From NCBI GenBank assembly GCA_021823685.1, contig JAKANL010000003.1, positions 18,189 to 82,188 on the forward strand: DNA of 64,000 nt, written 5' to 3'. Shown in pieces: positions 7,108 through 38,610 of this stretch (the first letter of the stretch is position 1; each line of letters starts with the position of its first letter). Made by a program: the position numbers and the translations under genes. This stretch comes from a bacterium. GTDB lineage: Bacteria; Babelota; Babeliae; Babelales; UBA12409. Below the pieces are notes generated by a model that searched no databases, was not told the DNA's origin, and worked only from the letters and a program-made list of their open reading frames with translations.

Positions 7108-7183
7108 TGGCAGGCCAGGAGGGACTCGAACCCCCAACCTTCAGATTTGGAGTCTGTCGCTCTACCATTCGAGCTACTGGCCT
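7108..7183 (-). tRNA. tRNA-Trp (anticodon CCA)
   Basis: rc reads AGGCCAGTAGCTCGAATGGTAGAGCGACAGACTCCAAATCTGAAGGTTGGGGGTTCGAGTCCCTCCTGGCCTGCCA. Acceptor AGGCCAG/CTGGCCT pairs, loop is CT-CCA-AA, T-arm is GGTTCGAGTCC, and CCA is encoded. Confidence 0.9.
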
Positions 7184-7332
7184 CACTCGCGCGGCCACGC
7201 GCCGCGTTACTTAAACTGTTCTCCTCCACCGCTCCACTCGAACCCAATAAATTCGTCTCTTTTTCACCCCGCGCGGTCCTTTGCAAATCCCTGAAGATTG
7301 ACCACCCGGCATTTTCGACGAATCCACTGATC

Positions 7333-7408
7333 TGGAGCCCGCGACCGGGATTGAACCGGTGACCTCTCCCTTACCAAGGAAGTGCTCTACCAACTGAGCT
7401 ACGTGGGC
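7333..7408 (-). tRNA. tRNA-Thr (anticodon GGU)
   Basis: rc reads GCCCACGTAGCTCAGTTGGTAGAGCACTTCCTTGGTAAGGGAGAGGTCACCGGTTCAATCCCGGTCGCGGGCTCCA. Anticodon loop is TT-GGT-AA. There is one A-C mismatch in the acceptor stem. Confidence 0.85.
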
Positions 7409-7585
7409 TTCTCTTACCTAACAACCTCACACTTTTTATATATAGGTTAAAGTAAAAAAAGAAAAAAAACAACTCGCATAGTTGCGTTTTTATGCACGGT
7501 TGCCCTACTTTTACCTACCTTCGGCCTTCTAATTACAGTCAATTCCTCGATTTTATCGCCTTTTTTGACTGTCGCCGACACTTTT

Positions 7586-7661
7586 TGGAGCTGGCGATTG
7601 GATTCGAACCAACGACCTGCTGATTACAAATCAGCTGCTCTACCAGCTGAGCTACGCCAGC
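7586..7661 (-). tRNA. tRNA-Thr (anticodon UGU)
   Basis: rc reads GCTGGCGTAGCTCAGCTGGTAGAGCAGCTGATTTGTAATCAGCAGGTCGTTGGTTCGAATCCAATCGCCAGCTCCA. Acceptor pairing is perfect and the loop is TT-TGT-AA. Confidence 0.9.
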
Positions 7662-7676
7662 GCTCTTTGAATATGT

Positions 7677-7752
7677 TGGAGCGGGAAACGGGACTCGAAC
7701 CCGCAACCTGCAGCTTGGAAGGCTGCCGCTCTAGCCATTGAGCTATTCCCGC
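7677..7752 (-). tRNA. tRNA-Gly (anticodon UCC)
   Basis: rc reads GCGGGAATAGCTCAATGGCTAGAGCGGCAGCCTTCCAAGCTGCAGGTTGCGGGTTCGAGTCCCGTTTCCCGCTCCA. Loop is CT-TCC-AA. Confidence 0.9.
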
Positions 7753-7756
7753 AACC

Positions 7757-7841
7757 TGGTGGTGAGGGTAGGATTTGAACCTACGAAGGCAGAGCCAACG
7801 GATTTACAGTCCGTCCCCTTTGACCGCTCGGGAACCTCACC
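7757..7841 (-). tRNA. tRNA-Tyr (anticodon GUA), long variable arm
   Basis: rc reads GGTGAGGTTCCCGAGCGGTCAAAGGGGACGGACTGTAAATCCGTTGGCTCTGCCTTCGTAGGTTCAAATCCTACCCTCACCACCA. Loop is CT-GTA-AA. It has a class II extra arm. Confidence 0.9.
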
Positions 7842-21921: not shown

Positions 21922-22089
21922 ATGAAGAAATATGTGCCATGGATTGTTGTTGTCGGCCTTTTGATTGCCGGCCTTACGGCTTGGTACGTCTACAGTGCGG
22001 GTCATCCAACAATACAAACACCTACGTGCCCTACAGGGTCATCATGTCCTGAGGTTATAAAAGAGGCTAGGGATATGTCCGGAGTATAG
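21922..22089 (+). CDS. mini membrane protein, tandem paralog 1 (55 aa)
   Basis: ATG after AAAGGAG gives MKKYVPWIVVVGLLIAGLTAWYVYSAGHPTIQTPTCPTGSSCPEVIKEARDMSGV. Below the ORF-track size cut-off; translated manually. Confidence 0.5.
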   Translation: MKKYVPWIVVVGLLIAGLTAWYVYSAGHPTIQTPTCPTGSSCPEVIKEARDMSGV

Positions 22090-22131
22090 CCATCTGAAGA
22101 GTCATAGAAAAAATGTTATTAGGAAAATCGT

Positions 22132-22320
22132 ATGAAGAGATATTTACCATGGCTTGTCGCCATCGGCCTCATAATCGCCGGCGCTACGGTTTGGTACGTG
22201 TACAGCGATGCCACGAGCAGTGAAAGCACGCCAACAAAAACAAAACAATGCTCGGGATGCCCCAAAACTGAAACCGAAGATGAAGTTATAAAAGTGACTG
22301 AGGCTATATCCCCAATGTAG
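22132..22320 (+). CDS. mini membrane protein, tandem paralog 2 (62 aa)
   Basis: MKRYLPWLVAIGLIIAGATVWYVYSD...CSGCP...EVIKVTEA. The same leader AGAAAAAATGTTATTAGGAA.ATCGT precedes paralogs 2 and 3. Confidence 0.55.
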   Translation: MKRYLPWLVAIGLIIAGATVWYVYSDATSSESTPTKTKQCSGCPKTETEDEVIKVTEAISPM

Positions 22321-22357
22321 CCGAAGGGTCACAGAAAAAATGTTATTAGGAAGATCG

Positions 22358-22474
22358 TTGAAGAGATATTTACCATGGTTCATCGCGATTGGGCTTATCA
22401 TCGCCGGCGCCACGGTTTGGTTTACGGTCAACAACATAAAAAAATCCGATCATCCAACCGTGCAGACCGGATAA
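22358..22474 (+). CDS. mini membrane protein, tandem paralog 3 (38 aa, TTG start; possibly decaying)
   Basis: LKRYLPWFIAIGLIIAGATVWFTVNNIKKSDHPTVQTG. The start context CGTTGAAG versus CGTATGAAG in paralog 2 suggests a 1-nt loss that destroyed the ATG. Confidence 0.35.
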   Translation: MKRYLPWFIAIGLIIAGATVWFTVNNIKKSDHPTVQTG

Positions 22475-22511
22475 AAAGGTAGCATAAGCTAAAATGTAAA
22501 AACCCCTTTTC

Positions 22512-22598
22512 GGCTGGCTCAAGTTGGTCGAATCTGGCGCGCAAGAAATCACGATCGAAAGCCAGGATGACGAGCACTACACGATAACGGGAAAATGA
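22512..22598 (+). pseudogene. 3' remnant of an EndoU-immunity-family gene
   Basis: GGCTGGCTCAAGTTGGTCGAATCTGGCGCGCAAGAAATCACGATCGAAAGCCAGGATGACGAGCACTACACGATAACGGGAAAATGA is near-identical to the last ~85 nt of 26420-26785 (…WLKLVESGAQEITIESQDDEHYTITGK*). There is no upstream ORF. Confidence 0.75.
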
Positions 22599-22615: not shown

Positions 22616-23761
22616 TTAATTCGGCCTGGTCCCCTCGCCCAGGATAGTAAGATATCGCGCATACACAAATCGCCGCCCACGTTTTTTACCGGTAATTTCT
22701 TTCAAGATCCCGATTTTTTCAAATTGATTGATCAGATTTGAAGCCGCTTGATGAGAAAGCTTAAATTCACGCTGTACATCGCTAACACGTATTAACGGCG
22801 TATAAAAAAGCTTATCTAATAACATGATTGCAAGCGGTGATGATATCCTTCTTTTTCCAAGCAGCGCCTGATGTGTTTCGCGTAACTGTAGTATGCGTTT
22901 AATGTTTTCAGTAGCATCTTGGCATGTTTGGATAACGCCAACCAAAAAAAACTCTACCCACTGCTCATAATCGCCTTTTTCGCGTACAAGCGTAAGCCGA
23001 TCATAGTATTCTTGACGATTTTTTTTCAAATAATAACTCAAATACAAAAGAGGCTTTTTAAGAATGCCACGCCAATAAAGATAAAACGTGATAAGTAAGC
23101 GTCCCAACCGTCCGTTGCCGTCCAAAAAGGGGTGGATGGTTTCAAACTGATAGTGAATCAACGCGCAGTTGATCAGTTCCGGCATCACCGATTTTTTATG
23201 CATGTATACTTCAAGATCGCCCATGGCTTTTAACGCCTCAGCTGGCGTTGGCGGAACGTAACGAGCCGTTTTCATGGTACAGCCAGGAGCTCCGATCCAA
23301 TTTTGTATTTTTTTAAATTCGCCGGGTGTCTTTTCTGCGCCGCGTACACCCTTAAGCAAAATCGCATGCAACTCTTTGATAAGCTTCAGGCTCATAGGTA
23401 ATGAATCGAGTCGATCGATACCATAGTGAAGCGCTTTAATATAATTTACAACTTCGACAACATCATTGACGTTTTCAAGCTTGGCACCACTTTCGAATTC
23501 AAAGACGTCTTCAAGCGAGGCTTGCGTACCTTCGATCTGGGCGCTCAATAATGCTTCTTTTTTTACGTACATGGTAATAAAAAGATCGGTGTTGGGCAGG
23601 GCATAAGCCATACCGTCCAAACGTGCAAGATGGAGAGTCGCATCCCACAGAAGTTTTTGCATGTTCTCGTTAATATTAATCGCTGGATGCGGCGGCAAGG
23701 ATGTTGGTACAAAAGCCTTGAACCCAGCCGGTTGATTTACATAAATACCACTTCGATTCAT
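22616..23761 (-). CDS. Fic-family protein (AMPylase-type) with N-terminal inhibitory-helix motif and C-terminal wHTH
   Basis: 381 aa. Fic motif HPFLDGNGRLGRLL (HxFx[D/E]GNGRxxR). N-terminal SAQIEG fits (S/T)xxxE(G/N). The C-terminus looks like a winged helix. Confidence 0.9.
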   Translation of the reverse strand: MNRSGIYVNQPAGFKAFVPTSLPPHPAININENMQKLLWDATLHLARLDGMAYALPNTDLFITMYVKKEALLSAQIEGTQASLEDVFEFESGAKLENVNDVVEVVNYIKALHYGIDRLDSLPMSLKLIKELHAILLKGVRGAEKTPGEFKKIQNWIGAPGCTMKTARYVPPTPAEALKAMGDLEVYMHKKSVMPELINCALIHYQFETIHPFLDGNGRLGRLLITFYLYWRGILKKPLLYLSYYLKKNRQEYYDRLTLVREKGDYEQWVEFFLVGVIQTCQDATENIKRILQLRETHQALLGKRRISSPLAIMLLDKLFYTPLIRVSDVQREFKLSHQAASNLINQFEKIGILKEITGKKRGRRFVYARYLTILGEGTRPN

Positions 23762-24056: not shown

Positions 24057-26423
24057 GTGAAGCGATTGGGAATATTTTTTGCACTTACCGTGCAAGGGTT
24101 GGGGGCAATAAATAGCGAAGTACAATGGCACGATCTTCAAGATTTTTGTATGGGTTTACGGGAAAGTCCTTCGCCCATAAAAGTCCAGTCGAGAAACGAA
24201 TTTGTTGATGGTGGTTCGGCGCTTATTGATTGGGTTGTTCGGCAACATGATTACGGACCTGTAGATTACGAAAATTTTCAAAGCTCACCGAGCGAACAAA
24301 CTTCTTCGCAGAAAGATACTGCGTCACCAACAGATTCCGTTCAGCCCCTAGGCGGGAGGCCCCGCTTCGCTCAAGCTTCCGCCTTCGCTAAAGCTACTGC
24401 GGACAAGATGGCGGACAGGTCTCCGGGCAGCCAGCGATTGACCCCGAAATCCCCCGCTCACTGTTTGAAAAAACTCTCCACTCACAAAAAACTCTCCGCT
24501 CACACTGAGCTTGTCGAAGTGTGCCCATCTTCTCGCCCAGGGCAACACCCGCAGGGCAAGACCCAAAATTTAAAAAATGTTAAAAAAGCTGCAGTTTTCA
24601 AAAGCATGCTCCAACAAAGTAGTAGTATTTCGCAAGTCAAATTGCTTTATACAAACTACTGTTCGCAACTCGATAACCATTTGCTCAATCCAGCCAACTA
24701 CCAGTTGATCGATAAGCGCGTTCGTGCGCTCAAAGCAACGCTCGATCATCCGGGCCAGATTCAGGAGCGAAACATAAAATTTTCAGCGCAAGAACGAGCC
24801 GAGCTTTTAAAATCTGGCGTATCGGCGGCAGCTCTCGCCTCTCTGCGTGGCAGTGCCGCGCAGCTTGAACTGCACGAAGAATACACGTCCGTCTTTGAGC
24901 AATGGGCACAAAAGAGCCACGAAATCCGACGCTCGCTCGTGCAAGAAAGTATTGCGCAGATAACATTACAGTTTGCTGATCTTGCCGATGAATGTAATCG
25001 TAGCAATAATCTTGCTGGCAGTTACGCCATGGCCGACGTTATGCACGCGGCGTGGCAGAGTGTGCAAGAATTTTTTACGCTGGCCAAAGCGACAGCACAG
25101 GTCGATTACGAAGTTCTGGGCATACTGGGCGCAAGCGCGCTTGACGGAGCTCTCTGTGCCGGCTGTTCAACGGCGCAGGCGATCAGCCATCCGGTTCAAA
25201 CGCTCAAGGCTCTTGGCTCAACAATTGCGCGCGTAGCATATACGGCAGATATTTTGCTCGGTAATGATAAGCAGCGCAGTGCCCAAACGCGCGCTGAACT
25301 TTATGCCATGCTCAAGGCAGCAGCCAACGAATTGTCTGCCAAAGCACAATCCCAACACCCCCTCATGACGTTCAGTGACTGCGTATCCGGCGGCACGCAG
25401 TTTGTTGCCGAAGGCGTATTGGCTTCCAAATGCATGACGCTATCAGCAAACGTTCTGAGCAAAAGCGCACAAGCACTTAACAAACTTCCTGAACTGGCAA
25501 AAACAGCCGGCACCAAAATCCGCTTGCCCCTCACCGGCCCACAACGCGAACTGGCTCTTGCGCACGCCCAGGCAAGTATAGGTGAGGGATTTATTGAGGA
25601 AATGGCCCGCGCACAGACAGGTATTAGCGGAGCCCGGCGTAGCCCGATCGTAGCCACGCCCAGCCGTCGCCAAGGGCTATGGCGGGCACGGGTCGAAGAG
25701 GGGCGAAGACGGGTGCTCAAGCAAGAGCAAGAGGCGGTTCAAAAGATACCGGCTCAACAGGCTACTCCAAACGCTTCTGCCGGTTTACAATCGCAAAAAC
25801 CGTCTGCCCAACCGACGACGCCAGTTTCTCCTTCCGGTTTGCAGCCAGCCGTGCCGGGAAAACCGTCGGTTACCACCGCTTTTCCCGGGCCGTTACCAGC
25901 GCCGGGTACCCAGCAACTGCTCAAAGTGTTTGCCCTGCCAGAGCAGCAACGTGCGGCAATTATTGCGCGATACGGCAAACCCATTCCAGAAATTGGTGGC
26001 GGACAATTTAAAAATCCGCTTCACTTAATTGCGATTGATGTGAGAAAAATTGATCAAAAAACGGGTATTGTCAAAGAGTGGATGGGTTTTCACCATGATT
26101 ACCAGCATGTGTTTGAACGTAACAATGTGATTACCTTAACCGAAAAACAAAATTTGGGCGGAGGATTTTACAAAGCAAAACCAATATATGGCACGCAAAT
26201 TCCGAAGTGGAAATCGTTTTTCCCTGCCGAGTGGCCACCGGAAAAGGTTTTTGAAAAGGTTATCGAAGCACACAATAATATAAAAGATATACTGCCTGCG
26301 AGGGGTGGCAGGAAAGAATTAATTGGTTGGCTTGAGCATGAACAAAAAGCAATATCGATTATCGTTGATGACAACAAAGATATTATTACCGCATATCCGA
26401 ATTTTTCTTACCGAGGAAGATGA
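24057..26423 (+). CDS. Sec-signal polymorphic-toxin-like protein with EndoU-like RNase C-terminal domain (copy 1)
   Basis: GTG start after GGGGAG. Signal-like MKRLGIFFALTVQGLGA. The C-terminal ~170 aa read ...PLHLIAIDVRKIDQKTGIVKEWMGFHHDY...KSFFPAEWPPEKVFEKVIEAHNNI...ISIIVDDNKDIITAYP. This fits my memory of the bacterial EndoU nuclease toxin pattern (HIL.G...G.H...K..FP..W....I......I.VV.....I.TAYP). No Rhs/YD, LXG, PAAR or haemagglutinin repeats recognised. Confidence 0.75.
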   Translation: MKRLGIFFALTVQGLGAINSEVQWHDLQDFCMGLRESPSPIKVQSRNEFVDGGSALIDWVVRQHDYGPVDYENFQSSPSEQTSSQKDTASPTDSVQPLGGRPRFAQASAFAKATADKMADRSPGSQRLTPKSPAHCLKKLSTHKKLSAHTELVEVCPSSRPGQHPQGKTQNLKNVKKAAVFKSMLQQSSSISQVKLLYTNYCSQLDNHLLNPANYQLIDKRVRALKATLDHPGQIQERNIKFSAQERAELLKSGVSAAALASLRGSAAQLELHEEYTSVFEQWAQKSHEIRRSLVQESIAQITLQFADLADECNRSNNLAGSYAMADVMHAAWQSVQEFFTLAKATAQVDYEVLGILGASALDGALCAGCSTAQAISHPVQTLKALGSTIARVAYTADILLGNDKQRSAQTRAELYAMLKAAANELSAKAQSQHPLMTFSDCVSGGTQFVAEGVLASKCMTLSANVLSKSAQALNKLPELAKTAGTKIRLPLTGPQRELALAHAQASIGEGFIEEMARAQTGISGARRSPIVATPSRRQGLWRARVEEGRRRVLKQEQEAVQKIPAQQATPNASAGLQSQKPSAQPTTPVSPSGLQPAVPGKPSVTTAFPGPLPAPGTQQLLKVFALPEQQRAAIIARYGKPIPEIGGGQFKNPLHLIAIDVRKIDQKTGIVKEWMGFHHDYQHVFERNNVITLTEKQNLGGGFYKAKPIYGTQIPKWKSFFPAEWPPEKVFEKVIEAHNNIKDILPARGGRKELIGWLEHEQKAISIIVDDNKDIITAYPNFSYRGR

Positions 26424-26785
26424 TGAAAAAACTGGTATTGGTCGATAGCGAGCATGGCTACTGGAAGACGAAAGAAGATTTTGATGATGATATGGATCTT
26501 TTAAGAGCATTTCTGAATAGCAATCCAGTGCCTGACCTAAAAGAGTTTCTTGACGATCTCAATAAAGATTGGGAATTCGGGGGGGGGGATCTTGTAAATT
26601 TTGAACGTCATGATGGCCAAATAACGTTGGGCTATGATTTTGAGGACGACGGACACAAATTTACGATCAAAGAAAGTGAACTCGAAAAACTTATCATCGA
26701 CTGGCTCAAGTTGGTCGAATCTGGCGCCAAAGAAATCACGATCGAAAGTCAGGATGACGAGCATTATACGATAACGGGAAAATAG
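26420..26785 (+). CDS. candidate cognate immunity protein (copy 1)
   Basis: 121-aa ORF whose ATG overlaps the toxin stop (ATGA). Acidic. Paralogs sit in the same position after toxin copies 2 and 3. No family recognised. Confidence 0.7.
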   Translation: MMKKLVLVDSEHGYWKTKEDFDDDMDLLRAFLNSNPVPDLKEFLDDLNKDWEFGGGDLVNFERHDGQITLGYDFEDDGHKFTIKESELEKLIIDWLKLVESGAKEITIESQDDEHYTITGK

Positions 26786-27539: not shown

Positions 27540-28730
27540 TCAGGGTACAACCACAGCCAGCAGTCGATCCCTCACTGGATTGGGGATGTTAAGAGCTTGA
27601 CGCGTTTGATCTGATGGATGCTGAAATGTCTGTTGAACCCCATTGATGGCCGTATGCGCTGAGTACATGTTAAAAAACAAGGACAGAAGCGTATTTTTAA
27701 ACTTCTTGGCAGCGCAATGTCCTGGAACTATGTTACGAATAGTCAATTCGTCTGTAGCGCCCCATAAGCCAAAAGAAACCGCCAAACGACCTGCGGCATT
27801 GCCGTACTTCCGGGTAACTTCTTCCGCCCGTTCACCGCTCGCAAATGATACGAGCGATGCTATCGCTTCGTTATCCAACATGCAATACCCAACATATGAC
27901 GTCCCGCCTGATACTGCTGCGAGTGCGAGCAATTCTGCCGTATCGGTTAGGCCTGTTCTGTGCTTACGGAACCAATTTTTGATTTTACCGAGGCACGTTT
28001 CGGGAACGATAACGCCGCTTGGCTCTTTGCCCTTGTCTAGCGCAGCTACTGGCTGCTTTAACTTGGCCAATTCTTGGACCGTCAACCCACTTTCTATATC
28101 CAGCTCCATCAGCGGCCCAACAGCTTGGGACTCTCGCTCTTTTTCAGCCGCCTTGGACGCCACTTCTTGCGTCAAAATACCTGTGGCTTGTGTGTCAAGC
28201 GTTTGCTTAGATTTTTCAGTACCCAACCTGCCAGGATACAATTTTTCACAAGGCCCATCTGCCGCAGTCAATAAATCTTTAAGTTGCTCTTTAAGGCTTT
28301 TTGGCGTTGGCGAATCCGAATCTGATGACGAGTTAAGCGGCGATTCATACGGCGGCGAATCTGAATCTGGCGGTGAATCTGAGCCTGATGAAGAGTAAAG
28401 CGACGGTTCGTACGGCGGCGAATCTGAACCTGATGAAGAGTTTAGTGGCGATTCGTATGGCGGCGAATCGGTTGCCAACGAACCAGCGTCTGATGAAGAA
28501 CTTGAATATCTTTGATCTGGCGATTGACTTCGTGGCGTTGATAACCCAGCCTTTTCCAGAGCGTCTCTCAGAGGAAGATTTTTAGTCTCCATTGCATATA
28601 AACAACTATTGATTACTGCTACCCCCACCAAGACTTTCAGCATATCTTTGCATCTGATCATGATACACCTGTACTTTCCGCAATCCCCAGGTTTAATACT
28701 CTTAATTTCCATTGTACTCTTTTTTTTCAT
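27540..28730 (-). CDS. hypothetical secreted protein with Ser/Pro tandem repeats and hydrophobic C-terminal domain (family member 1)
   Basis: 396-aa ORF. Probable start at M30 (28643), giving MLKVLVGVAVINSCLYA. Repeats SDSPPYE(S/P)(P/S)L(N/Y)SSSGSD. The C-terminal hydrophobic region resembles that of the three genes downstream. Confidence 0.6.
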   Translation of the reverse strand: MKKKSTMEIKSIKPGDCGKYRCIMIRCKDMLKVLVGVAVINSCLYAMETKNLPLRDALEKAGLSTPRSQSPDQRYSSSSSDAGSLATDSPPYESPLNSSSGSDSPPYEPSLYSSSGSDSPPDSDSPPYESPLNSSSDSDSPTPKSLKEQLKDLLTAADGPCEKLYPGRLGTEKSKQTLDTQATGILTQEVASKAAEKERESQAVGPLMELDIESGLTVQELAKLKQPVAALDKGKEPSGVIVPETCLGKIKNWFRKHRTGLTDTAELLALAAVSGGTSYVGYCMLDNEAIASLVSFASGERAEEVTRKYGNAAGRLAVSFGLWGATDELTIRNIVPGHCAAKKFKNTLLSLFFNMYSAHTAINGVQQTFQHPSDQTRQALNIPNPVRDRLLAVVVP

Positions 28731-28855: not shown

Positions 28856-29761
28856 TTAAGCCGCATGCTCTTTTGCCTGCGCAATTCTTCGCTCAAGCGC
28901 GGGCAGCAGCTCTTTTACATGAACTGCCGATGAAAGCCTCAGCATACGCTGGGTAATCGACAATCGATTATGCTGATCTTGCGCGCTCAGACGCTCAAAA
29001 TCAGGAAAATAGGTCTGCCAAAGCATGGTCAATGGCGGCATCGTATTCGAATGATCTTTGGCAAGATTAAAGTATTCTGAACACAGCCTAAGAAATGCTT
29101 GCTGCTCAGGCACGGGCCAGCAACTAATCGTATCATAGAGCACGCGCAACTGTGCCCGACGGTAATATTCATTGGCAACGCTCGCGCTCCCCAAACAAAC
29201 CATGTAAAGCCACAAATAGCCCGTATCTGGCAATTGAAAGCCAAGAGCGCGGTAATAGTTAAGCGCTACGTCGACGGGAATCTCAATGGCACAAGCAAGC
29301 ACAACCTTCCACAATGGCCAACGATCACCAGGCCCGAAGGCGGTCGCCGTTCCGGTGGCAATGGAGGCAAGCTGTGGAAACTCGGTGTTACCGCCCCACC
29401 ACACCTCAGTATTGATACCAAAAGTAGCCGTAGCCAGTAACGCCGTCTCCAACGCATTACGCGCTGGCTCACTCAGCCGCCACCATGCGCGGCTAACGCC
29501 TCTTCCGCACGATTGGCAGCCATGCCACAACCCAAGACACCAGCGAACTGGAGCCGCGTGCTGCTGCAGCACAACGGGGCGCTCTTCTTCCATTTGTTCG
29601 ATCGATTGCGCATCAGCAAGTAAATGGCTCGTTAATGCCACTTGACGATCACTCGACATACCAGCGAGCTGATTTATGAGGCCAACACACAAAAACGCGT
29701 ATAATAATTTTTTGCTCAACATGATAAACCTTTCTTCAACGACCGTTTTAACGTCTCGCAT
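28856..29761 (-). CDS. hypothetical secreted membrane protein (family member 2)
   Basis: 301-aa ORF; probable start at 29722 (MLSKKLLYAFLCVGLINQLAG). Central block ...SRAWWRLSEPARNALETALLATATFG...IEIPVDVALNYY... aligns with 31719-32753 (...DSWRGLSQGTRNTLVVSILLATTLA...IEVPVDVTTNWF...). Confidence 0.6.
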   Translation of the reverse strand: MRDVKTVVEERFIMLSKKLLYAFLCVGLINQLAGMSSDRQVALTSHLLADAQSIEQMEEERPVVLQQHAAPVRWCLGLWHGCQSCGRGVSRAWWRLSEPARNALETALLATATFGINTEVWWGGNTEFPQLASIATGTATAFGPGDRWPLWKVVLACAIEIPVDVALNYYRALGFQLPDTGYLWLYMVCLGSASVANEYYRRAQLRVLYDTISCWPVPEQQAFLRLCSEYFNLAKDHSNTMPPLTMLWQTYFPDFERLSAQDQHNRLSITQRMLRLSSAVHVKELLPALERRIAQAKEHAA

Positions 29762-31331
29762 GAACCGATAAATACCCAGGTTCTGGAGAATTTTTCGCTG
29801 TTCCCGATGAGCTCCCTGCCGAGCTCGTAGCGCCTTCAGCAGAAGGCGTAATCACGATTTGTGGCGCATCGGCACTGGTTAATCCACATGACTCTTTTTT
29901 AAGTACAATGTCGGACAAGTCTTGGTTCGCTGCTGCTAAATCAAGGCGTTGATCCACCATGAGCTTAATGCCAGCCTGCACAAGTTCGGCATATCGCACT
30001 CGCTCAACGTCACTCCAATTTTTAAAGTCACCAACAAAAACCAGGCAAATCGCCGACGTCATCGTAAAATCGATTTGACTAAGCGCTGGCACACGCGTCC
30101 CCTTAACAATCTCCAACAGATCTTGCGTGATAGGAGCTTGCTGAGCAAGCGCCTCAAATCCCAACGCACCACGAAACTTTGCGTAATGTGCAAAATCGTC
30201 AGTTGGATCGGAAAACTGTTGAATACGATTCAATAATTCGACGACAATTTTTAAATGATACCTTTGTCCCGTTGCATCTTGGCTTCCAAACGGATCCCAT
30301 ATACGCAAACAAGTATCATACAAAGCGCTGAGCGATTCTTTCCCATCGGTAGCAATAAACTTTTTCATCGATTCAGGAGTAGGGTCGCTTGGTAGCGCAT
30401 CAATAACGGTTTTGAGTTGTTCAAATGTTGTACCACTGTTGTATAGCTGGTCCAAACACCACACAAAAAGCTCGACAAAGTTTACCTGCATTTCCTGCGG
30501 GAAGCGCTGTATTTGAGGATCATTGGAGCAAAAGGCAACAACATCCTGCCAAAGCTCTTCCTGGGTCAATTGGCTATTTTGATGAACGCGTAAATAGGCG
30601 GCAAGCATATCAGCAAAGAGGTCCTTTTCAAAACCAGCATTGTAATAGGCATTGAAGGGAATGCGATAGCCGCGGCGAACACGCAATTCATTGAACATGA
30701 TCGCGACAGCCGTCGAAAGTGCATATAACGAGACTAGACCGGTTTTTCTGTATTCATTTTTAAGAGCATCAATCTGAGAACACATATATACGTCTCCGGC
30801 AATTACCCCGCTGCAAATAAGGAGCTTGAGCCAGAAATTATATCGATCAGTAATATTAGCCGCTGCTTTTCCCATCAAAATCGCGGCACTCATTGAGATA
30901 CCGCTGCGATTGACGGCATGCGCTAAAACGTTAGCACCCACTTGAGCGGTTGTTATCCCCAGCGTTAAAAGAACATCTTTTGCCCATCGCGGCAATTTTT
31001 GCACATATACCGAACAGCACCCGGGCTCTTCTTCGCGTACCCCGCCAGCCTGCCCAGCAACTGGGCTCATTGACGAACTGGCAGCGGCCGGCGCAGATGG
31101 CCCAGCGGGCGAACCAGAATCAGAAGACATCTCGCCCATTTCAACAGCGCAAGGCGCGGCTAAAAGCGATTGTTTGAGTTCTTTCTGACGTGCAATAACT
31201 AATTTTTCTTTGCCATCATCGCGCTCCATACCGATCAAAGGCATAAAGGCCAGACACAACATGGCGTATAAGACATGACGAGAATTCATAGTACCTCCAT
31301 TAAGTACTTCTTTAGCTACCATAATCCCCAT
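29748..31331 (-). CDS. hypothetical secreted membrane protein (family member 3, long C-terminal extension)
   Basis: 527-aa ORF. The N-terminus MGIMVAKEVLNGGTMNSRHVLYAMLCLAFMPLIGMER is near-identical to that of 31719-32753. Hydrophobic middle. No family recognised. Confidence 0.65.
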   Translation of the reverse strand: MGIMVAKEVLNGGTMNSRHVLYAMLCLAFMPLIGMERDDGKEKLVIARQKELKQSLLAAPCAVEMGEMSSDSGSPAGPSAPAAASSSMSPVAGQAGGVREEEPGCCSVYVQKLPRWAKDVLLTLGITTAQVGANVLAHAVNRSGISMSAAILMGKAAANITDRYNFWLKLLICSGVIAGDVYMCSQIDALKNEYRKTGLVSLYALSTAVAIMFNELRVRRGYRIPFNAYYNAGFEKDLFADMLAAYLRVHQNSQLTQEELWQDVVAFCSNDPQIQRFPQEMQVNFVELFVWCLDQLYNSGTTFEQLKTVIDALPSDPTPESMKKFIATDGKESLSALYDTCLRIWDPFGSQDATGQRYHLKIVVELLNRIQQFSDPTDDFAHYAKFRGALGFEALAQQAPITQDLLEIVKGTRVPALSQIDFTMTSAICLVFVGDFKNWSDVERVRYAELVQAGIKLMVDQRLDLAAANQDLSDIVLKKESCGLTSADAPQIVITPSAEGATSSAGSSSGTAKNSPEPGYLSVHARR

Positions 31332-31520
31332 AGTTATATCCTAACAAATATATTCAATTTGTCAACCAATACAACAAAATAATTCAAAATAAGCAAAATA
31401 AGTAATGTATATTTTTATCGCCAAGATTAAGTATGAAAGAGGCTAAAAGATTGTCAACAAGGGGAAAAACGACTGTCATAGCAACGTGATAATGTCATAT
31501 TCACTGCAACAGAAAATATC

Positions 31521-31718: not shown

Positions 31719-32753
31719 TTAAACCGCTTGCGCAGATTGCGCTTTAACTAATTTTGCTTTCAATACTTCTTGAAGCTTTGGTATCGCACCTAGATCCCTC
31801 CACGCAATGACCTTTTCTACTTGAAGACTCGCGCGATCAAGATCACGGACTTCCCAGCCAAAAGCGCGCGCATCTTCTTGATAGAGTGAACGAATAGCGG
31901 CCACTCGTTGCGTAAGGGTTGCGGGTGTACGATCATCACGCTCAATCTTTTGGAGCGCATCAATTACTTTAGGCGCCACGCTTAAGGCCAAGGCCAATTC
32001 GCGCAATGTCCATCTGCGTGCTTCGCTCACCGCTTCGCGTTTATTTTTTTCAACCATTATGCTTGAAAGGCCAGTAAGTCCCATCGCCACAGCAAGAAAA
32101 CCAGTGTGCGGACAATGCATCTGCCCAGCGCGCGCTAAAAACCAATTAGTTGTCACGTCAACAGGCACTTCAATGCCAACCGCTAAGGCTTTGCCCCAAA
32201 AGGCATATTTTGCCAGTGGGCCATAACCCATAGCAACGCCCGTTGCGGCATGAATAAGCGCGGGCACCAACTCATTGCCCCCAAATGCATCCTCTGCCGA
32301 CGCTGCTAATGTGGTAGCTAAAAGTATTGAGACAACGAGGGTGTTTCGCGTTCCCTGCGATAAGCCGCGCCAGGAATCGGTGATATGGTTCCCGCACGAA
32401 TGCATACTTTCTCTGACACGCTGCCAGCAGCTTGGGCTTGGCCGAGCGGCATCACGATGCACCACGACAATCGGCGTTTTGGTCGGAGAAGATTCAACAA
32501 CGCTCGTATTAGGCATAGCTAAAGCGGCAGATGGTGCAGCAGCACCAGAACCCATGTCGCTCATTTCAACAGCAGGCGCTGCTAAAAGAGGCCTTCTAAA
32601 TTCGCTCGCCCAACCGGACTTTTTGCCCTTGCTATCGAAACGCTCCATGCCGATTAATGGCACAAAAGCCAGACAGAGCATGGCGTATAAGACGTGACGA
32701 GAATTCATCGAGCCTCCATTTATGAATACTTCTTTAGTTCCAATAATTCCCAT
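31719..32753 (-). CDS. hypothetical secreted membrane protein (family member 4)
   Basis: 344-aa ORF with N-terminus MGIIGTKEVFINGGSMNSRHVLYAMLCLAFVPLIGMER. Paralog of 28856-29761 and 29748-31331. The upstream ~130 nt are also duplicated. Confidence 0.65.
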   Translation of the reverse strand: MGIIGTKEVFINGGSMNSRHVLYAMLCLAFVPLIGMERFDSKGKKSGWASEFRRPLLAAPAVEMSDMGSGAAAPSAALAMPNTSVVESSPTKTPIVVVHRDAARPSPSCWQRVRESMHSCGNHITDSWRGLSQGTRNTLVVSILLATTLAASAEDAFGGNELVPALIHAATGVAMGYGPLAKYAFWGKALAVGIEVPVDVTTNWFLARAGQMHCPHTGFLAVAMGLTGLSSIMVEKNKREAVSEARRWTLRELALALSVAPKVIDALQKIERDDRTPATLTQRVAAIRSLYQEDARAFGWEVRDLDRASLQVEKVIAWRDLGAIPKLQEVLKAKLVKAQSAQAV

Positions 32754-32894
32754 AGATACATCCTAATAAAATATTCAATTTGTCGGTTTAGAATCGGATT
32801 TAATTTAAAATAAGCAAAATAAATAATGCGTTTTTTGCTCCAACGTTAAGTATGAAAGAGGCTAAAATATTGTCAATAACTGGCCAAACGACCA

Positions 32895-33277: not shown

Positions 33278-34435
33278 GTGGTGAAGTGGGCAGTAGTATT
33301 TGCGGCCTTAAGTACCGCCAAGTGTTTGTTGGGAGATGGATTTTGCGCAGGGACGCATGTTAAAACGCCTGGTGGTTATGCCGCGATTGAACAGATTAAA
33401 CAAAAAGATCTCATTATTGGTTTTGATGCACGGCTCGGCGTATGCGCACCTTGCATCGTAAATGCGATTAACAAAAAACGTGTGAATCAAGTTATTAGGC
33501 TGACCACTGGGGGGCAAGAGCTCTATGTTGGATGCCAGCAGCGATTTTTGTGCCTGAACCAAAGAAGAAATGATCTGAAGCGCTGGTTGATTTGGACAAA
33601 GGTGCGTGATCTTAAACGGGGTATGCGGCTATTGAGCGCGAATAAAATCAGCGTTTGTGTTGATACCGTTCAGCGTATGGCCAGGCCGATAGATGTATAT
33701 GAGTTAAGTGTAGCTGGGGCGCATACGTATATTGTAACTGAACATGATCTTGTTGCGCACAATGTCGCTCCCATTGTAATTCCCTTTGTTTATACCGTCG
33801 GAGAGGGCGTAACAATTGCCTGGGGAGCTGCGGCGGCGTTGCTTGGATATGCGACGATCCATCACGCTGTAGGAAACCGCTGTGATACGTCAGGATTATG
33901 CGGACCACACACGGTTGATGAAATACAAAATCATCAGGACAATTGGAGTCGCTTAGTCCGCGAGCGAACGATCAGCGCTGATCGTTCTAAACTGCACTTG
34001 TGCTATGGTGGCAGTAATGGAGGGCCAGATCGCAATAATAAGTCGCCATGTAATCCCAATAAGGGAAAAAATAAAAATCCTCAGCAGCCATCGGATCCGA
34101 ATAATGCGCGTAATAAAAATCAAAGGCAAGGGCCGAAAAATGTAAACTCAAGACAAGTTGCTGCCAAAGAACGTAAATTTAATACGATGGAAAGGGCGGA
34201 GGTTTTTCGGAAAGGTAAATTTAAGCAAGACTATAAAACGTGCAAAAACGGCCGTTATGTAAAAAAAACCGGTGTCGAAGGATTTGGGAAAAGAGCGCAA
34301 TATTTAGAGTGGGATAATTTTCATAAAGATATGGAAATGTATGATAAATTTGGCCGGCATCAAGGATGTATAGAGCCGATTACTGAAAAAATATATAAAC
34401 CAGCCGTACCTGGCCGAACGATTAATGTAAGGTAA
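33278..34435 (+). CDS. Hint-domain polymorphic toxin with colicin-E3-like 16S rRNase C-terminal domain
   Basis: 385 aa. Signal-like N-terminus, then Hint blocks GFCAGTHVKTPGGYAAIEQIKQKDLIIGFD ... YELSVAGAHTYIVTEHDLVAHN, then a hydrophobic segment and an Asn/Lys/Pro-rich linker. The C-terminus ...KRAQYLEWDNFHKDMEMYDKFGRHQGCIEPITEKIYKPAVPGRTINV aligns with the colicin E3 end ...KIYEWDSQHGELEGYRASDGQHLGSFDPKTGNQLKGPDPKRNIKKYL recalled from memory. The D, H and E of the catalytic WD..H...E string are retained. Confidence 0.8.
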   Translation: MVKWAVVFAALSTAKCLLGDGFCAGTHVKTPGGYAAIEQIKQKDLIIGFDARLGVCAPCIVNAINKKRVNQVIRLTTGGQELYVGCQQRFLCLNQRRNDLKRWLIWTKVRDLKRGMRLLSANKISVCVDTVQRMARPIDVYELSVAGAHTYIVTEHDLVAHNVAPIVIPFVYTVGEGVTIAWGAAAALLGYATIHHAVGNRCDTSGLCGPHTVDEIQNHQDNWSRLVRERTISADRSKLHLCYGGSNGGPDRNNKSPCNPNKGKNKNPQQPSDPNNARNKNQRQGPKNVNSRQVAAKERKFNTMERAEVFRKGKFKQDYKTCKNGRYVKKTGVEGFGKRAQYLEWDNFHKDMEMYDKFGRHQGCIEPITEKIYKPAVPGRTINVR

Positions 34436-34438
34436 TGT

Positions 34439-35647
34439 ATGAAGAAAATCGACATTCTGGATAAATTGTACAAAAAAATGATCACGCAGAGAGAGGCTGA
34501 GGCCATTTATGTAGACGTTTTTGATAAATTCAATCGAGGGATATTAAAAACTGATCCGGTAAAACTTTTATGTTTATCCCATAAAGAGAAAATTGCGATT
34601 CGGCTGCATGATATATCGCTTAAAGTCTTGGCAAAATGGCGGTATGAGGGTTGGCCAAAAACCTGCGCCATTTGCGATAAACCTGTGGCGATAGGAAAAG
34701 TTGATTGGTGCGTCTTTGAGCGAAAGAAAATTGGCGGTAAAATGCGCAGCGAGGTGGTTATGCATGGGGATTGTTACTCAGCAATGCCCACCCCGAAAAA
34801 GGCATCGCAAGATCTCTACGAGATTTTTGATCGAGCGTGTGCGAAGGCCTCTGATGAACGATTGATGCGCCTTTTAGCGCGATTTAAAAAAATGGATTAC
34901 CTTGCAGCTCCCATCATTTTTGATCTCATTTGTGCAAAAAGAATCAGAGTTCTTAAATTATTGCATGAGCAACACGTACCATTTTCTTATTTGGCTTCTT
35001 CTGGTGGTAACGCACTTCACGCCGCCTGTGGCATTTCAGGCAGCCTTGAGGCGGTAAAATTTTTAATCAAAAATAATATTCTTACGGATATTAATGCCGA
35101 ATGCGATGATGGAGAAACGCCATTTCTTTTGGCTGTGATGTACAATCACATGGATATTGTTGAGTATTTTTTTGAACATTTTACTCCGAATGTAACCATT
35201 TCCACACTTCATGGTGATACACCGCTTTCACTTGCCAAAAAAAATGGCAACACACTATTATACGCTCTTATCACAGCGCATTTGCCAGAAACAAGTACGC
35301 CGATTTTAAAATTAAGTAGAAATGAGCTCAAACACGCTTTCGAAGGTGTATTGGCCATATTAATCGACGACGACATAAAGGAAATTGAATTTCCGGACAG
35401 AGCAATCTATTTTTGTCGGATCTTGAACAAAAAAGATGAAAATGACGGCTCGCCCGAATCAAACATTGTTGGATCATTAAGCGAAGATATGGCATCGCTT
35501 AAAGAAAGTATACATGGTAAAAAAGGATGGTTTGAATTAGACATCGAACGCTTTGGAGCGATACTTCTTGCACTTGGTGCACGAGTAAAAAGTACATATC
35601 CCAAACGCAGAGCACGGGTGTCTGGGCGTAAGATTGACGTGAGATAA
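34439..35647 (+). CDS. ankyrin-repeat protein; candidate immunity partner of the E3-like toxin
   Basis: 402-aa ORF starting 3 nt after the toxin stop. Middle ANK repeats (GGNALHAACGISGSLEAVKFLIKNN...DGETPFLLAVMYNHMDIVEYFF...HGDTPLSLAKKNGNTLL). The N-terminal ~130 aa are unassigned and carry C..C/H..C pairs. Confidence 0.75.
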   Translation: MKKIDILDKLYKKMITQREAEAIYVDVFDKFNRGILKTDPVKLLCLSHKEKIAIRLHDISLKVLAKWRYEGWPKTCAICDKPVAIGKVDWCVFERKKIGGKMRSEVVMHGDCYSAMPTPKKASQDLYEIFDRACAKASDERLMRLLARFKKMDYLAAPIIFDLICAKRIRVLKLLHEQHVPFSYLASSGGNALHAACGISGSLEAVKFLIKNNILTDINAECDDGETPFLLAVMYNHMDIVEYFFEHFTPNVTISTLHGDTPLSLAKKNGNTLLYALITAHLPETSTPILKLSRNELKHAFEGVLAILIDDDIKEIEFPDRAIYFCRILNKKDENDGSPESNIVGSLSEDMASLKESIHGKKGWFELDIERFGAILLALGARVKSTYPKRRARVSGRKIDVR

Positions 35648-36138: not shown

Positions 36139-37236
36139 ATGAATTTTCGTATTTTCTTTTTAGCGGCCGGCTTGTTTTTTGCTCCGGCGATGGGCATGTT
36201 TAAGTGTTGCATGTCCAGAAAACGTGCGGCCGATTATCACTCATTTGATTCGGCGACGCCATTAAGGGCCGAGCGTGCTGAACAGCCTCAGGCGAATATT
36301 ATTGTATCTACTCATGTCAAGCCTGATTTTACAAAAATGTTAGCCATTGTGAGAGCATTGTTCCCAAGAGCAGATACCCCTACAGCACTTAATTATGTAA
36401 AAATTCTAGCCTCGGGGCGGACTCAGCCTGTGCCAGTGTTTACTAAAGCGTTGATACCCTGCGAGCTCATATTTGGCAAATCGATTGCTGTTCGTTCTTC
36501 CGTTACTCACAACTATGGCAGCCCGGCGGTAAGCGCTGCGGCGTTGACCGCTGAGCAATGGAGAAAAATTGATATTGCTCTTGTGGAAGAGGGGAGAGAT
36601 GCCGCGTTGGCAATCATTATGAGTACCGGTGTCGATGTTGATGAAGCTGATCGCATACTTGTACAAATTGGCAAACAGCCACTCCGCGCACGATCAACCC
36701 CCCCACAAGCACATGCTGAAAGAAATTCTGACATAGAAAAATTAAATCAGCTTTATTCGGAAGGTTCGGCCGCTAAACCAGAAACGCGGGCATCCACTGC
36801 AAGGCGTGCGCCGTTGACTGCGGAGCAGTTGGCAAAAATTGAGGCTGCCCTCGCGAAAAATAACGCGGATGATGCGCTAGCCATTATTATGAGTGCTGGT
36901 ATCGGATTTGAGGAAGCTGACCGCATGCTTGCGCAAATAGGCAAAGAGCCAACTCGCACACCATCAATGCCGCTACGAGCACACGCTGGGGGAAGTTCAG
37001 GCATAGAAAGTGATCAGCTTTCTCGAGAAAGTTCGGCTGGCGGGTCCGAAACGCGGGCATCCACTGCAAGGCGTGCGCCACTGACTGCCGAGCAGCTAAC
37101 AAAAATTGAAGCGGCTCTCACTGAAAGTAGCGTAGACGCTGCATTGGCCGGCATTATGAACGCTGGCATCGAATTTGAAGAAGCTAACCGTATGCTTGTG
37201 CAAATGGGCAAAAAGTCGGTTCAGCCATTGTCATAG
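36139..37236 (+). CDS. hypothetical secreted protein with three ~75-aa tandem repeats
   Basis: 365 aa with signal-like MNFRIFFLAAGLFFAPAMG. Repeats LTAEQ(W/L).KI(D/E)-AL...DAALAIIMS.G...EEADR(I/M)L.QIGK occur three times (about 36535-36700, 36805-36950, 37085-37215). Confidence 0.6.
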   Translation: MNFRIFFLAAGLFFAPAMGMFKCCMSRKRAADYHSFDSATPLRAERAEQPQANIIVSTHVKPDFTKMLAIVRALFPRADTPTALNYVKILASGRTQPVPVFTKALIPCELIFGKSIAVRSSVTHNYGSPAVSAAALTAEQWRKIDIALVEEGRDAALAIIMSTGVDVDEADRILVQIGKQPLRARSTPPQAHAERNSDIEKLNQLYSEGSAAKPETRASTARRAPLTAEQLAKIEAALAKNNADDALAIIMSAGIGFEEADRMLAQIGKEPTRTPSMPLRAHAGGSSGIESDQLSRESSAGGSETRASTARRAPLTAEQLTKIEAALTESSVDAALAGIMNAGIEFEEANRMLVQMGKKSVQPLS

Positions 37237-37356: not shown

Positions 37357-37776
37357 TCAAGAAGCACTATTGGCGCTAAGAATACGCGTTATTTCTGCGT
37401 CATTATGTATCGCATAAACGCGGTAATCATCACCATCTTGCGTAATAAGTATTTTTGGCGGTTGTTGCGCGTAAACGGTTTTCCATTGCTCAAGAAGAGA
37501 AATGAATGACTGAACTGGAATTGAATATTCTTCATTCTCAGTTTCAGACCATTCATATGAGAGTTTAACTACCTTTCCATCCATTTCGTAGCACATGTCA
37601 TAAACCTGAACAAAACTTTCTTGTGGATTGCGTGCCCACGCAATAAAATCGTCGGCATCATATCTGACAATACCCCTCAAAAAATGCGCAGCAGCACAAA
37701 GCGATAACGAGGTTGCCTCGTTATCTTCAATGGTATAGCTTATGATTTCTGATTTTTTCAAAATAATGTAACTCAT
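37357..37776 (-). CDS. candidate immunity protein of the orphan EndoU module
   Basis: 139-aa ORF whose ATG abuts the stop of the orphan toxin module. The C-terminus ...SFISLLEQWKTVYAQQPPKILITQDGDDYRVYA distantly parallels ...LEKLIIDWLKLVESGAKEITIESQDDEHYTI of immunity copies 1-3. Confidence 0.55.
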   Translation of the reverse strand: MSYIILKKSEIISYTIEDNEATSLSLCAAAHFLRGIVRYDADDFIAWARNPQESFVQVYDMCYEMDGKVVKLSYEWSETENEEYSIPVQSFISLLEQWKTVYAQQPPKILITQDGDDYRVYAIHNDAEITRILSANSAS

Positions 37777-38229
37777 TTATACGACTGCCTTAAAATTTTC
37801 TTCCCAGGGATAAACCGTAATAACTTTACCGTTTCTAATGCATGTTACAATAACCATCCCATCATTTGTCTTCCCCATAAAAATTCCCGTCTTGCTCTCA
37901 TAGGAAATCTCATTATTCCATGATTCAACAATTTTTTTGGCGAGTCCATCCATGGTCCACTGCGACGGAAAAAGCGTAGCCTTTGGTTTTATAACATCGC
38001 CTATTTTTAATTTACATAAAACAGCTCCACTTGAGTGTACTTTTGGTTCGATCAGTTGAACTTTACCAGCTTTTTGCAATGCGCCATTCTGATCCCAGTG
38101 AAATCCAAAAATTTTAGTTTTGCGTTTGGCCGGATTATAGCGTACATCGGCAGCGAGGATGTGCCACAGATCAATGGATGCTATCTTAACGGGTAACTGA
38201 GGCTGCTGTGCAACAGTTATAACATGTGC
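37777..38229 (-). pseudogene. orphan EndoU-like toxin C-terminal module without a canonical start
   Basis: The frame is open from the TGA at 38232-38230 down to 37777 and reads AHVITVAQQPQLPVKIASIDLWHILAADVRYNPAKRKTKIFGFHWDQNGALQKAGKV...KATLFPSQWTMDGLAKKIVESW...GMVIVTCIRNGKVITVYPW. That is a complete divergent EndoU-type pattern. The only start-like codon is a TTG at 38079, inside the domain. Confidence 0.6.
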
Positions 38230-38241
38230 TCAAGTTAACCG

Positions 38242-38610
38242 CTATTTTCCCGTTATCGCGTAGTGCTCGTCATCCTGACTCTCGATGGTAATCTCTTTTG
38301 CGCCCGATGCGACGAGCTTGAGCCAGCCGATCAAAATCTTTTCAAGCTCACTTTCTTTGATGGTGAATGAGGGCCCATCTTCTTCGAATTCGTAACTTAG
38401 CTTTATATAACCATCATGGCGTTCAAGAGTAATAAGATTTCCTCCAGCAGAATCCCAATCTTTATTTTTTTGTAAGAACTCGAGGCTGTATTCGAGAAAA
38501 TCGGGGCAATCACCAACTAAAAATAGCATTAAAAATCCAAAGCCCGCTTCAGGCTCTTCTTTGGGTTTCCAATAGCCCGACTTACTTTCAAATAGAACCA
38601 TTTTTTTCAT
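38242..38610 (-). CDS. candidate cognate immunity protein (copy 2)
   Basis: 122-aa ORF with ATGA overlap with toxin copy 2. Its C-terminal half is near-identical to copies 1 and 3; its N-terminal half is diverged. Confidence 0.7.
   Translation of the reverse strand: MKKMVLFESKSGYWKPKEEPEAGFGFLMLFLVGDCPDFLEYSLEFLQKNKDWDSAGGNLITLERHDGYIKLSYEFEEDGPSFTIKESELEKILIGWLKLVASGAKEITIESQDDEHYAITGK

Follow-up and report, generated by a model that had tools for sequence, protein, structure and literature searches.

The 64,000-nt stretch of contig JAKANL010000003.1 analyzed here (assembly GCA_021823685.1; hereafter the window, whose numbering is used for positions) contains three loci, A, B and C, which self-BLAST identified as paralogues. 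Loci A and B each hold a large intact toxin gene with a signal-peptide-like start and an EndoU-like C-terminus, and at all three loci a small acidic open reading frame (ORF), a putative immunity gene, overlaps the end of the toxin frame. We interpret the loci as paralogous Sec-dependent polymorphic toxin/immunity modules of a bacterium of the Dependentiae, and hold this interpretation to be probable. The features of the two intact modules, together with the immunity gene of copy C, are as follows.

24057-26423, + strand: toxin gene A, intact ORF of 788 aa with a GTG start and the Shine-Dalgarno-like GGGGAG upstream (P0002 in public assemblies)
24645-25475, + strand: predicted constant all-alpha middle domain of A (residues 197-473), 85% identical in amino acids to B and homologous to the distant relatives P0010-P0013
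25908-26423, + strand: pre-toxin junction (TQQLLKVFALPEQQR) and predicted EndoU RNase domain of A (residues 618-788), with candidate catalytic residues H656, H679, K719-S720 and T778
26420-26785, + strand: putative immunity gene A, 121 aa, isoelectric point (pI) 4.4, its ATG overlapping the toxin stop as ATGA
38607-41042, - strand: toxin gene B, intact ORF of 811 aa laid out as A (P0001)
39540-40403, - strand: predicted constant all-alpha middle domain of B (residues 214-501), with the motifs G..AQ.ELH.E, AD, HPxQT and F..EG.L..K
38607-39128, - strand: pre-toxin junction and predicted EndoU domain of B (residues 639-811), with candidate catalytic residues H677, H700, K741-S742 and T800
38242-38610, - strand: putative immunity gene B, 122 aa, pI 4.6, with the ATGA overlap
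58551-58919, + strand: putative immunity gene C, 122 aa, pI 4.8, with the ATGA overlap

A and B have their parts in the same order, in which the signal-peptide-like start is followed by a variable region, then by the constant domain, a Pro/Gln-rich linker and the EndoU C-terminus, and the pre-toxin junction AFPGPLPAPGTQQLLKVFALPEQQR, the Pro-rich linker and the toxin motif string that had been described in the first-pass annotation are present in both. That annotation had treated the middle of the protein as a single region of ~500 aa; the comparison of A with B divides it instead into a variable part, a constant domain of ~300 aa and a linker. The leader and variable part (B residues 1-205) are 34% identical in amino acids, the constant domain (B residues ~206-510) is 85% identical and reaches 97-99% nucleotide identity in places, the linker (B residues 511-638, ~130 aa) is 73% identical, the junction (B residues ~614-644) is 89-93% identical in nucleotides, and the C-terminus is 71% identical in amino acids. 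A homogenized constant part next to a diversifying toxin and immunity protein is what polymorphic-toxin paralogues usually show. An ENA assembly has a variant of toxin B that differs in 1 residue (P0003). In the surroundings of A and B, scans for promoters and terminators returned counts no higher than those in shuffled sequence.

For A, B and C alike, GTG is the proposed start, with a GGAG/GGGG Shine-Dalgarno-like motif 5-8 nt before it. By heuristic criteria, the three N-termini have a positive n-region, a hydrophobic h-region of 9-10 residues and an A-x-A-like site, and by these criteria the earlier description of signal-peptide-like N-termini applies to A (residues ~1-17) and B. B has a Cys at position 15 without a canonical lipobox. 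By the same heuristic, signal-peptide-like starts are found in seven of the eight family members and in none of the immunity proteins.

The C-termini are supported as members of the EndoU_bacteria family by the profile PF14436, whose curated gathering cutoff is 25.3 bits. Four C-termini match it, with mutual identities down to 25%: A scores 25.3 bits, exactly at the cutoff, B 28.1 bits as a full protein and 31.5 bits as a C-terminus alone, C 35.1 bits, and an orphan cassette next to locus B (described below) 31.4 bits over profile positions 17-127 of 129. The resemblance to EndoU toxins that had first been noted from the sequence alone is thus borne out at or above the cutoff in four sequences (25.3-35.1 bits). 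The motif string HLIA / GFHH / KSFFP / ITAYP is present in A and B, and an alignment that includes the orphan cassette and the C-terminus of the distant relative P0013 (25-29% identity) has invariant H, D, G-F-H, D, F-P, W, K and E. Among these five C-termini, the first catalytic His motif reads HLIA, HILA or HIFG and GFH is invariant; the Lys-Ser/Thr ahead of F-P is kept, or shifted by one residue in the orphan (K-S or K-x-T), and the threonine of I-T-x-Y-P is found in four of the five, P0013 stopping short of the motif. The published Tox-EndoU signature is H, H, [SNT], [SNT] (PMC3482391), and the active site of CdiA-CT STECO31 consists of H187, H204, K261 and T262 (PMC9086364). From the order of the motifs, we infer that the H/H/K-S/T pattern of the C-termini is equivalent to these, fitting both the signature and the His-His-Lys site.

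At the three loci the toxin/immunity junctions read AGATGATG, AAATGAAA and AAATGAAA, and the ATGA overlap is real. The downstream ORFs, already singled out in the first-pass annotation as acidic proteins of 121-122 aa (pI 4.4-4.8), resemble immunity genes in position, size, charge and translational coupling, which supports their assignment as such. Their N-terminal half is the most divergent part, with ~50% nucleotide identity. A word-index search of 5.8 billion protein clusters with immunity protein B returned paralogues only.

Beyond the intact modules, the window holds a broken third copy, an orphan cassette with its own putative immunity gene, and an immunity-gene remnant.

57209-57919, + strand: copy C N-terminal fragment, running from a signal-peptide-like start through the variable region into the first third of the constant domain, followed by an out-of-register frame to a stop at 58156 (P0009)
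57895-58554, + strand: separate frame of copy C, with the end of the linker, the junction and an intact EndoU ORF; 219 aa from GTG, without a signal peptide
37777-38229, - strand: orphan EndoU cassette, a complete predicted toxin domain with both His motifs and without the N-terminal region, 25% identical to the B C-terminus
37357-37776, - strand: putative immunity gene of the orphan cassette, 139 aa, pI 4.4, its ATG right after the TAA stop of the cassette
22506-22596, + strand: remnant of an immunity-gene 3' end, 30 codons, 87% identical to the C-termini of immunity proteins A and B

In copy C, ~909 nt of A (24916-25824) are reduced to 44 nt, removing most of the constant domain; the deletion junction (...EQWAQK / KEQQTAQQ...) falls within an A4 run near 57908 and shifts the frame by 1 nt, and the copy is split into a 315-aa N-terminal fragment and a separate 219-aa EndoU ORF. 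Accordingly, the claim of one architecture with a large protein at each of three loci holds for A and B, which are intact, and fails for C, which is broken by the frameshifting deletion. The 219-aa ORF is part of a pseudogene or, in effect, an orphan cassette. Assemblies from NCBI, Logan and ENA all record the frameshifted fragment. A truncated DDE transposase ORF (PF01609; 55752-56156, + strand) lies ~1 kb upstream of the degraded copy.

The orphan cassette starts 12 nt past the stop of immunity gene B, encodes a second type of EndoU domain and reads ...LWHILAADVR...FGFHWD...KATLFPSQW...VITVYP. It has no start codon before a TTG at 38079, which is itself downstream of the catalytic His residues. 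Against the other immunity proteins, its putative immunity protein gives a profile match that is colinear but weak (hhalign P=0.001). The cassette, its immunity gene and the remnant at 22506-22596 had been missed in the first-pass annotation, and what it took for a three-fold amplification comprises two intact genes and a pseudogene, besides a silent cassette and a remnant.

Repetition of this kind raises the question of whether the multi-copy picture is an artefact of the metagenome-assembled genome (MAG), produced by collapsed or chimeric repeats. A and B share stretches at 97-99% nucleotide identity, and contigs of other assemblies break in or beside locus B: those of two other assemblies, L001 (37742-39979) and L002 (37742-39612), end at 39979 and 39612, and both end at 37742, in the orphan-cassette immunity gene. 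This shared end suggests a repeat or a strain-variable boundary. However, in independent assemblies (GCA_027347085.1, Logan SRR13300764 and ENA ERZ27237587) locus B recurs at 100% identity together with its immunity gene and the orphan cassette, A, B, C and their immunity genes are 27-40% different over most of their length, and the ORFs are intact with sensible patterns of conservation, so that we find an assembly artefact scarcely credible.

The N-terminal ~640 aa have no meaningful match in Pfam (E<=1) or NCBIfam (E<=0.01), and the constant domain matches nothing among PDB sequences. In agreement with the first-pass annotation, which had recognized no known trafficking module, the Pfam (E<=1) and NCBIfam scans of toxins A, B and C gave no Rhs/YD, FHA/TPS, LXG/WXG, PAAR/VgrG, MafB-N (DUF1020) or colicin/pyocin T/R domain. 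An AlphaFold 2 (AF2) model of the constant domain is a helical bundle with a mean per-residue confidence (pLDDT) of 68.6 and a predicted template-modelling score (pTM) of 0.64. Compared with PDB folds, this model matched designed helical repeats only (TM-score <=0.36), and compared with BFVD folds it gave noise only. We conclude that the constant domain is a previously uncatalogued domain of ~300 aa, all-alpha as modeled. A transmembrane or pore-forming middle domain was considered and rejected (a single borderline hydrophobic window, in a segment that is a Gly-rich amphipathic stretch in the relatives).

An exhaustive HMMER search with B residues 1-625 against 1.84 billion representative proteins (E<=0.001) gave six proteins: A, the copy C fragment and four distant metagenomic proteins, P0010 (E 5e-10) and P0011, P0012 and P0013 (E ~2e-4), whose matches are confined to B residues ~190-526. 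Because only six proteins among 1.84 billion match at this threshold, the constant-domain family is rare. The relatives are 22-27% identical, come from several divergent metagenomic lineages and share with B the motifs G..AQ.ELH.E, AD, HPxQT and F..EG.L..K. P0014, which is related to P0012 but shortened, makes a fifth relative, and four of the five have signal-peptide-like N-termini by the heuristic. A tblastx comparison of the window with the contigs of the relatives yielded no taxonomic signal. A word-index search of 5.8 billion clusters with toxin B found only B itself and A; the same kind of search with the middle-domain alignment found only the copy C fragment and P0014, and is uninformative since it also missed members of the query. 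Scans of genome_contigs and metagenome_contigs with the A/B alignment returned nothing.

The C-termini and downstream genes of these relatives differ from one another. The C-terminus of P0010 matches PDB 5T86_A, 'CdiA toxin' (E 1e-20), and is followed by a CdiI_ImmP gene (87 bits). That of P0011 matches PDB 5I4Q_A, 'Contact-dependent inhibitor A' (E 6e-17), and the next gene has a precomputed PF28101 CdiI-like annotation, which was not reproduced on a Pfam rescan at E<=0.01. At the P0012 locus (L007, 3072-4352), the order is toxin, DUF2247 gene, an 81-aa start-proximal orphan C-terminus that is 53% identical to the P0010 C-terminus, and CdiI_ImmP. The P0012 C-terminus itself has no PDB sequence match, and it and that of P0014 are two types without assignment. 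The P0013 C-terminus is EndoU-like (27% identity to B, E 2e-7; PF14436 18.0 bits, below the cutoff), and the 125-aa ORF after it has a weak colinear likeness to the immunity proteins of A, B and C (hhalign P=0.005). A relative's locus with the same gene grammar (L008, 10240-10617) lies on a 109-kb contig that also encodes ankyrin proteins. Because C-termini and downstream genes vary on the same constant domain, this domain is a shared scaffold for swapped, unrelated toxin/immunity cassettes, as defines a true polymorphic-toxin family.

This exchange of C-termini also bears on whether the proteins are exported at all. If the hydrophobic N-terminus were no functional signal peptide, each locus could be a non-exported addiction module of the toxin-antitoxin (TA) type, or a housekeeping RNase with its inhibitor. 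The tight coupling of a basic nuclease (the C-terminal 185 aa have a pI of 9.4) with an acidic partner (pI 4.4-4.8) would suit such a module, a leaderless C-terminus could be made from the copy C GTG at 57895, and endoU is annotated as a cytoplasmic endonuclease in a study of C. destructans (PMC6561590). Yet the ~640-aa N-terminal extension with its conserved leader is unlike TA toxins, the signal-peptide-like start recurs in seven of eight members, and the C-terminus swapping shared with contact-dependent inhibition (CDI) systems, together with the orphan cassettes, is a hallmark of secreted polymorphic toxins. We therefore consider a non-exported module very unlikely.

The RadA protein encoded in the window is 59-63% identical to the RadA of seven MAGs, five of which are labelled Candidatus Dependentiae or Babeliales, which places the organism in the Dependentiae (TM6) and bears out the earlier guess that the genome is host-associated. 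Members of this widespread and almost uncultured phylum live inside protists as obligate symbionts or parasites, and most of the proteins that they secrete are orphans. An origin from Chlamydiae or as type III secretion system effectors was ruled out by the RadA placement.

For such an organism, the toxins could instead be host-directed effectors, the exported EndoU acting on protist RNA for host shutdown or nucleotide scavenging and the immunity protein only guarding the producer before export. RNA as a substrate is universal, eukaryote-like candidates (ankyrin-repeat and RING plus ankyrin-repeat proteins) and orphan ORFs, some of them signal-peptide-like, abound in the window, and Zhang et al. 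2012 argue for host targeting by some APD1/2 toxins of endosymbionts (PMC3482391). The study of C. destructans lists endoU among the cytoplasmic endonucleases in host biopolymer degradation and, separately, ties secreted nucleases to the breakdown of host structures (PMC6561590). Against this stands that host-directed effectors are seldom accompanied by silent cassettes or by dedicated immunity genes that diversify with them, whereas in this window four immunity genes persist intact along with a remnant, with the divergence greatest in the N-terminal half, and that the constant-domain relatives have CdiA-type C-termini and CdiI-family genes, which are known for bacterial killing. On balance, we regard host-directed effectors as unlikely.

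Under the interpretation as polymorphic toxin/immunity modules, the precursor would cross the inner membrane via Sec. From the periplasm, it may be released in outer-membrane vesicles or by a type II secretion system (T2SS), which belongs to the core genome of TM6 and has two gspD copies there (PMC4776705). In C. destructans, 44% of coding sequences have signal peptides (PMC6561590). The constant domain may anchor or present the toxin or aid its entry into the target cell, and target specificity may lie with the variable N-region. The EndoU domain would cleave target RNA, most likely tRNA or other uridylate-containing RNA, and each immunity protein would bind its own toxin one-to-one in the cytoplasm of the producer. 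The most likely targets would be competing bacteria, that is, related strains infecting the same protist; we favor bacterial targets because the other C-termini of the family are CdiA-type antibacterial tRNases, some with CdiI-family genes downstream, and because the immunity genes diversify along with the toxins and silent cassettes are kept. C-terminus/immunity replacement may have left behind the orphan cassette, copy C in its broken state and the remnant, which probably still supply immunity.

Several points weigh against this interpretation. The signal-peptide calls are heuristic only, and the EndoU scores are near the cutoff, that of A right at it. Neither the EndoU C-terminus by itself nor a profile of it matched any PDB sequence, and the AF2 model of full-length B, built from a two-sequence alignment, has a pLDDT of 33.5 overall and <52 in the C-terminus, so it is unusable for judging an EndoU/BECR fold. 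For the divergent immunity proteins, the statistical support for homology is weak (hhalign probability 7-22%). The three main C-termini of this genome are all EndoU, and C-terminal polymorphism is seen only across lineages. A delivery, anchoring, presentation or entry role of the constant domain is something that we purely infer, and an obligate intracellular bacterium could equally direct an RNase at its host.

The genes around the modules were also inspected. Among the flanking ORFs scanned with Pfam, none was cdiB-like, and the toxins have no conserved MafA- or CdiB-type partner gene beside them. Upstream of A is a divergent Fic gene, encoding a Fic/DOC protein (Fic_N, Fic and a C-terminal helix-turn-helix; 22616-23761, - strand), which lies between the immunity remnant and toxin A; upstream of B is an unrelated 95-aa ORF, and the idea that it is a Fic remnant was rejected. 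A 385-aa protein encoded at 33278-34435, within the region 33278-35647 (+ strand), has a signal-peptide-like start, a pretoxin HINT domain (PT-HINT; PF07591) and a Cytotoxic domain of the colicin E3 type (PF09000), and is followed after 3 nt by a 402-aa ankyrin-repeat protein. Its PT-HINT is the sole known pre-toxin module of the window. The 385-aa protein is a further polymorphic toxin of the Sec type, unrelated to A and B, and its immunity protein is probably the ankyrin-repeat protein.

Other genes of the window include that of a eukaryote-like RING finger plus ankyrin-repeat protein (54515-55252, - strand), a candidate effector of the host ubiquitin system, and three tandem paralogous ORFs of 55, 62 and 44 aa (21922-22474, + strand) with the motif MK(K/R)Y(V/L)PW..IGL.IAG, which resemble single-pass membrane peptides and whose array contains a DNA repeat (22050-22195 versus 22281-22421). 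At 36139-37236 (+ strand), a 365-aa protein without a Pfam match has a signal-peptide-like start and three internal repeats of ~90 aa (...APLTAEQL.KIEAAL...IIMSAGI.FEEADRMLAQIGK...). Orphan proteins without Pfam matches are encoded on the - strand at 27540-28730, with Ser/Pro-rich repeats of the SDSPPYE type, and at 29748-31331 and 31719-32753, the last two being paralogous in their 5'-end regions (31115-31473 versus 32540-32892). Finally, a tRNA cluster Tyr-Gly-Thr-Thr-Trp (7108-7841, - strand) lies upstream of nusG-rplK-rplA-rplJ-like ORFs, named by size and position only, with no tuf between the tRNAs.

Among known systems, the closest is MafB/MafI of Neisseria (Jamet et al. 2015, PMC4287609). 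MafB has a type-I signal peptide, where A and B have a signal-peptide-like start, and like them it has a lineage-restricted conserved domain, a junction motif and a variable C-terminal toxin; in both systems the immunity gene lies directly downstream, there are several copies per genome, and further C-terminal cassettes follow, each with an immunity gene, the Maf cassettes being with or without start codons. MafB of MGI-1 in strain NEM8013 was shown experimentally to be an EndoU RNase that is blocked by its MafI, and MafB secretion depends on the signal peptide with the outer-membrane step unknown (PMC4287609). Unlike MafB, A and B have no Pfam match to DUF1020/MAFB-N (PF06255) at E<=1, no Neisseria protein was among the HMMER matches, no MafA-like lipoprotein gene lies upstream, and the all-alpha constant domain comes after a variable region of ~190 aa rather than straight after the signal peptide. 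The ~130-aa Pro/Gln-rich linker, the immunity family, the phylum and the life inside protists set A and B apart as well.

Lineage-specific N-terminal domains of this kind were described in silico by Zhang et al. 2012 (MAFB-N, Microscilla-N and APD1/APD2 of Amoebophilus), who noted them especially in endosymbionts and parasites of amoebae, proposed surface anchoring or clustering, and predicted that further lineage-specific domains exist (PMC3482391). Microscilla-N, APD1 and APD2 proteins share with A and B a lineage-restricted conserved domain and polymorphic C-termini, behind a signal peptide to which the signal-peptide-like start of A and B would correspond; A and B differ from APD1/2 in belonging to another domain family, in lacking a lipobox, and in that the domain occurs across several metagenomic lineages and not in one species. 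CDI systems (CdiA/CdiB/CdiI) share the modular C-terminal toxin, the cognate immunity gene, orphan C-terminus/immunity cassettes and an EndoU-class nuclease with a His-His-Lys site (CdiA-CT STECO31, PDB 5HKQ; predicted in A and B), and the likeness extends to the constant-domain relatives, with C-termini matching the CdiA-CT structures 5T86 and 5I4Q and CdiI-family genes next to them. However, Pfam and NCBIfam found no TPS domain, FHA repeats, VENN/PT domain or cdiB gene, and A and B are ~800 aa with a predicted Sec leader whereas CdiA exceeds 3000 aa and uses two-partner secretion. With nuclease colicins and S-type pyocins, A and B share a soluble multi-domain toxin, a C-terminal RNase and a coupled acidic immunity protein. 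The N-terminal or central uptake domains of those toxins may, speculatively, serve as a functional model for toxin entry here, although A and B have no detectable T/R domain, lysis gene or SOS context, and colicins lack signal peptides. In all, the A/B system appears to work like the MafB, Microscilla-N and APD classes but belongs to none of them.

The suggestion in the first-pass annotation of an undescribed toxin-delivery family is thus upheld for the constant domain, which is uncatalogued, but not for the kind of system, which is already described (Zhang et al. 2012; Jamet et al. 2015), nor for a role in delivery, which is unsupported. Systems that join a signal peptide to a constant domain confined to one lineage and to a variable C-terminal toxin, with an immunity gene and with cassettes that lack a start codon, were known before; new here are the particular constant domain, the immunity family and the phylum. 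In the searchable literature, we found no paper linking Dependentiae with polymorphic toxins or immunity proteins. A more far-reaching possibility, which we put forward only tentatively, is that the all-alpha 'HPxQT' domain and the preceding variable region form a new self-contained module for target recognition and entry, giving colicin-like delivery of a toxin released by Sec/T2SS or vesicles without a contact apparatus, which would have arisen independently in Dependentiae for warfare between symbionts within a shared protist or against the host.

The toxin/immunity reading of the loci suggests competition among bacteria inside protists and fits exclusion among co-infecting symbionts. It would add one more lineage-restricted constant domain to the MafB/APD class, in which the function of the domain is unknown in every case. 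Because it is small, predicted to be helical and found with several well-understood C-termini, this constant domain may offer a tractable system for learning how Sec-exported toxins leave a diderm cell and reach their targets.

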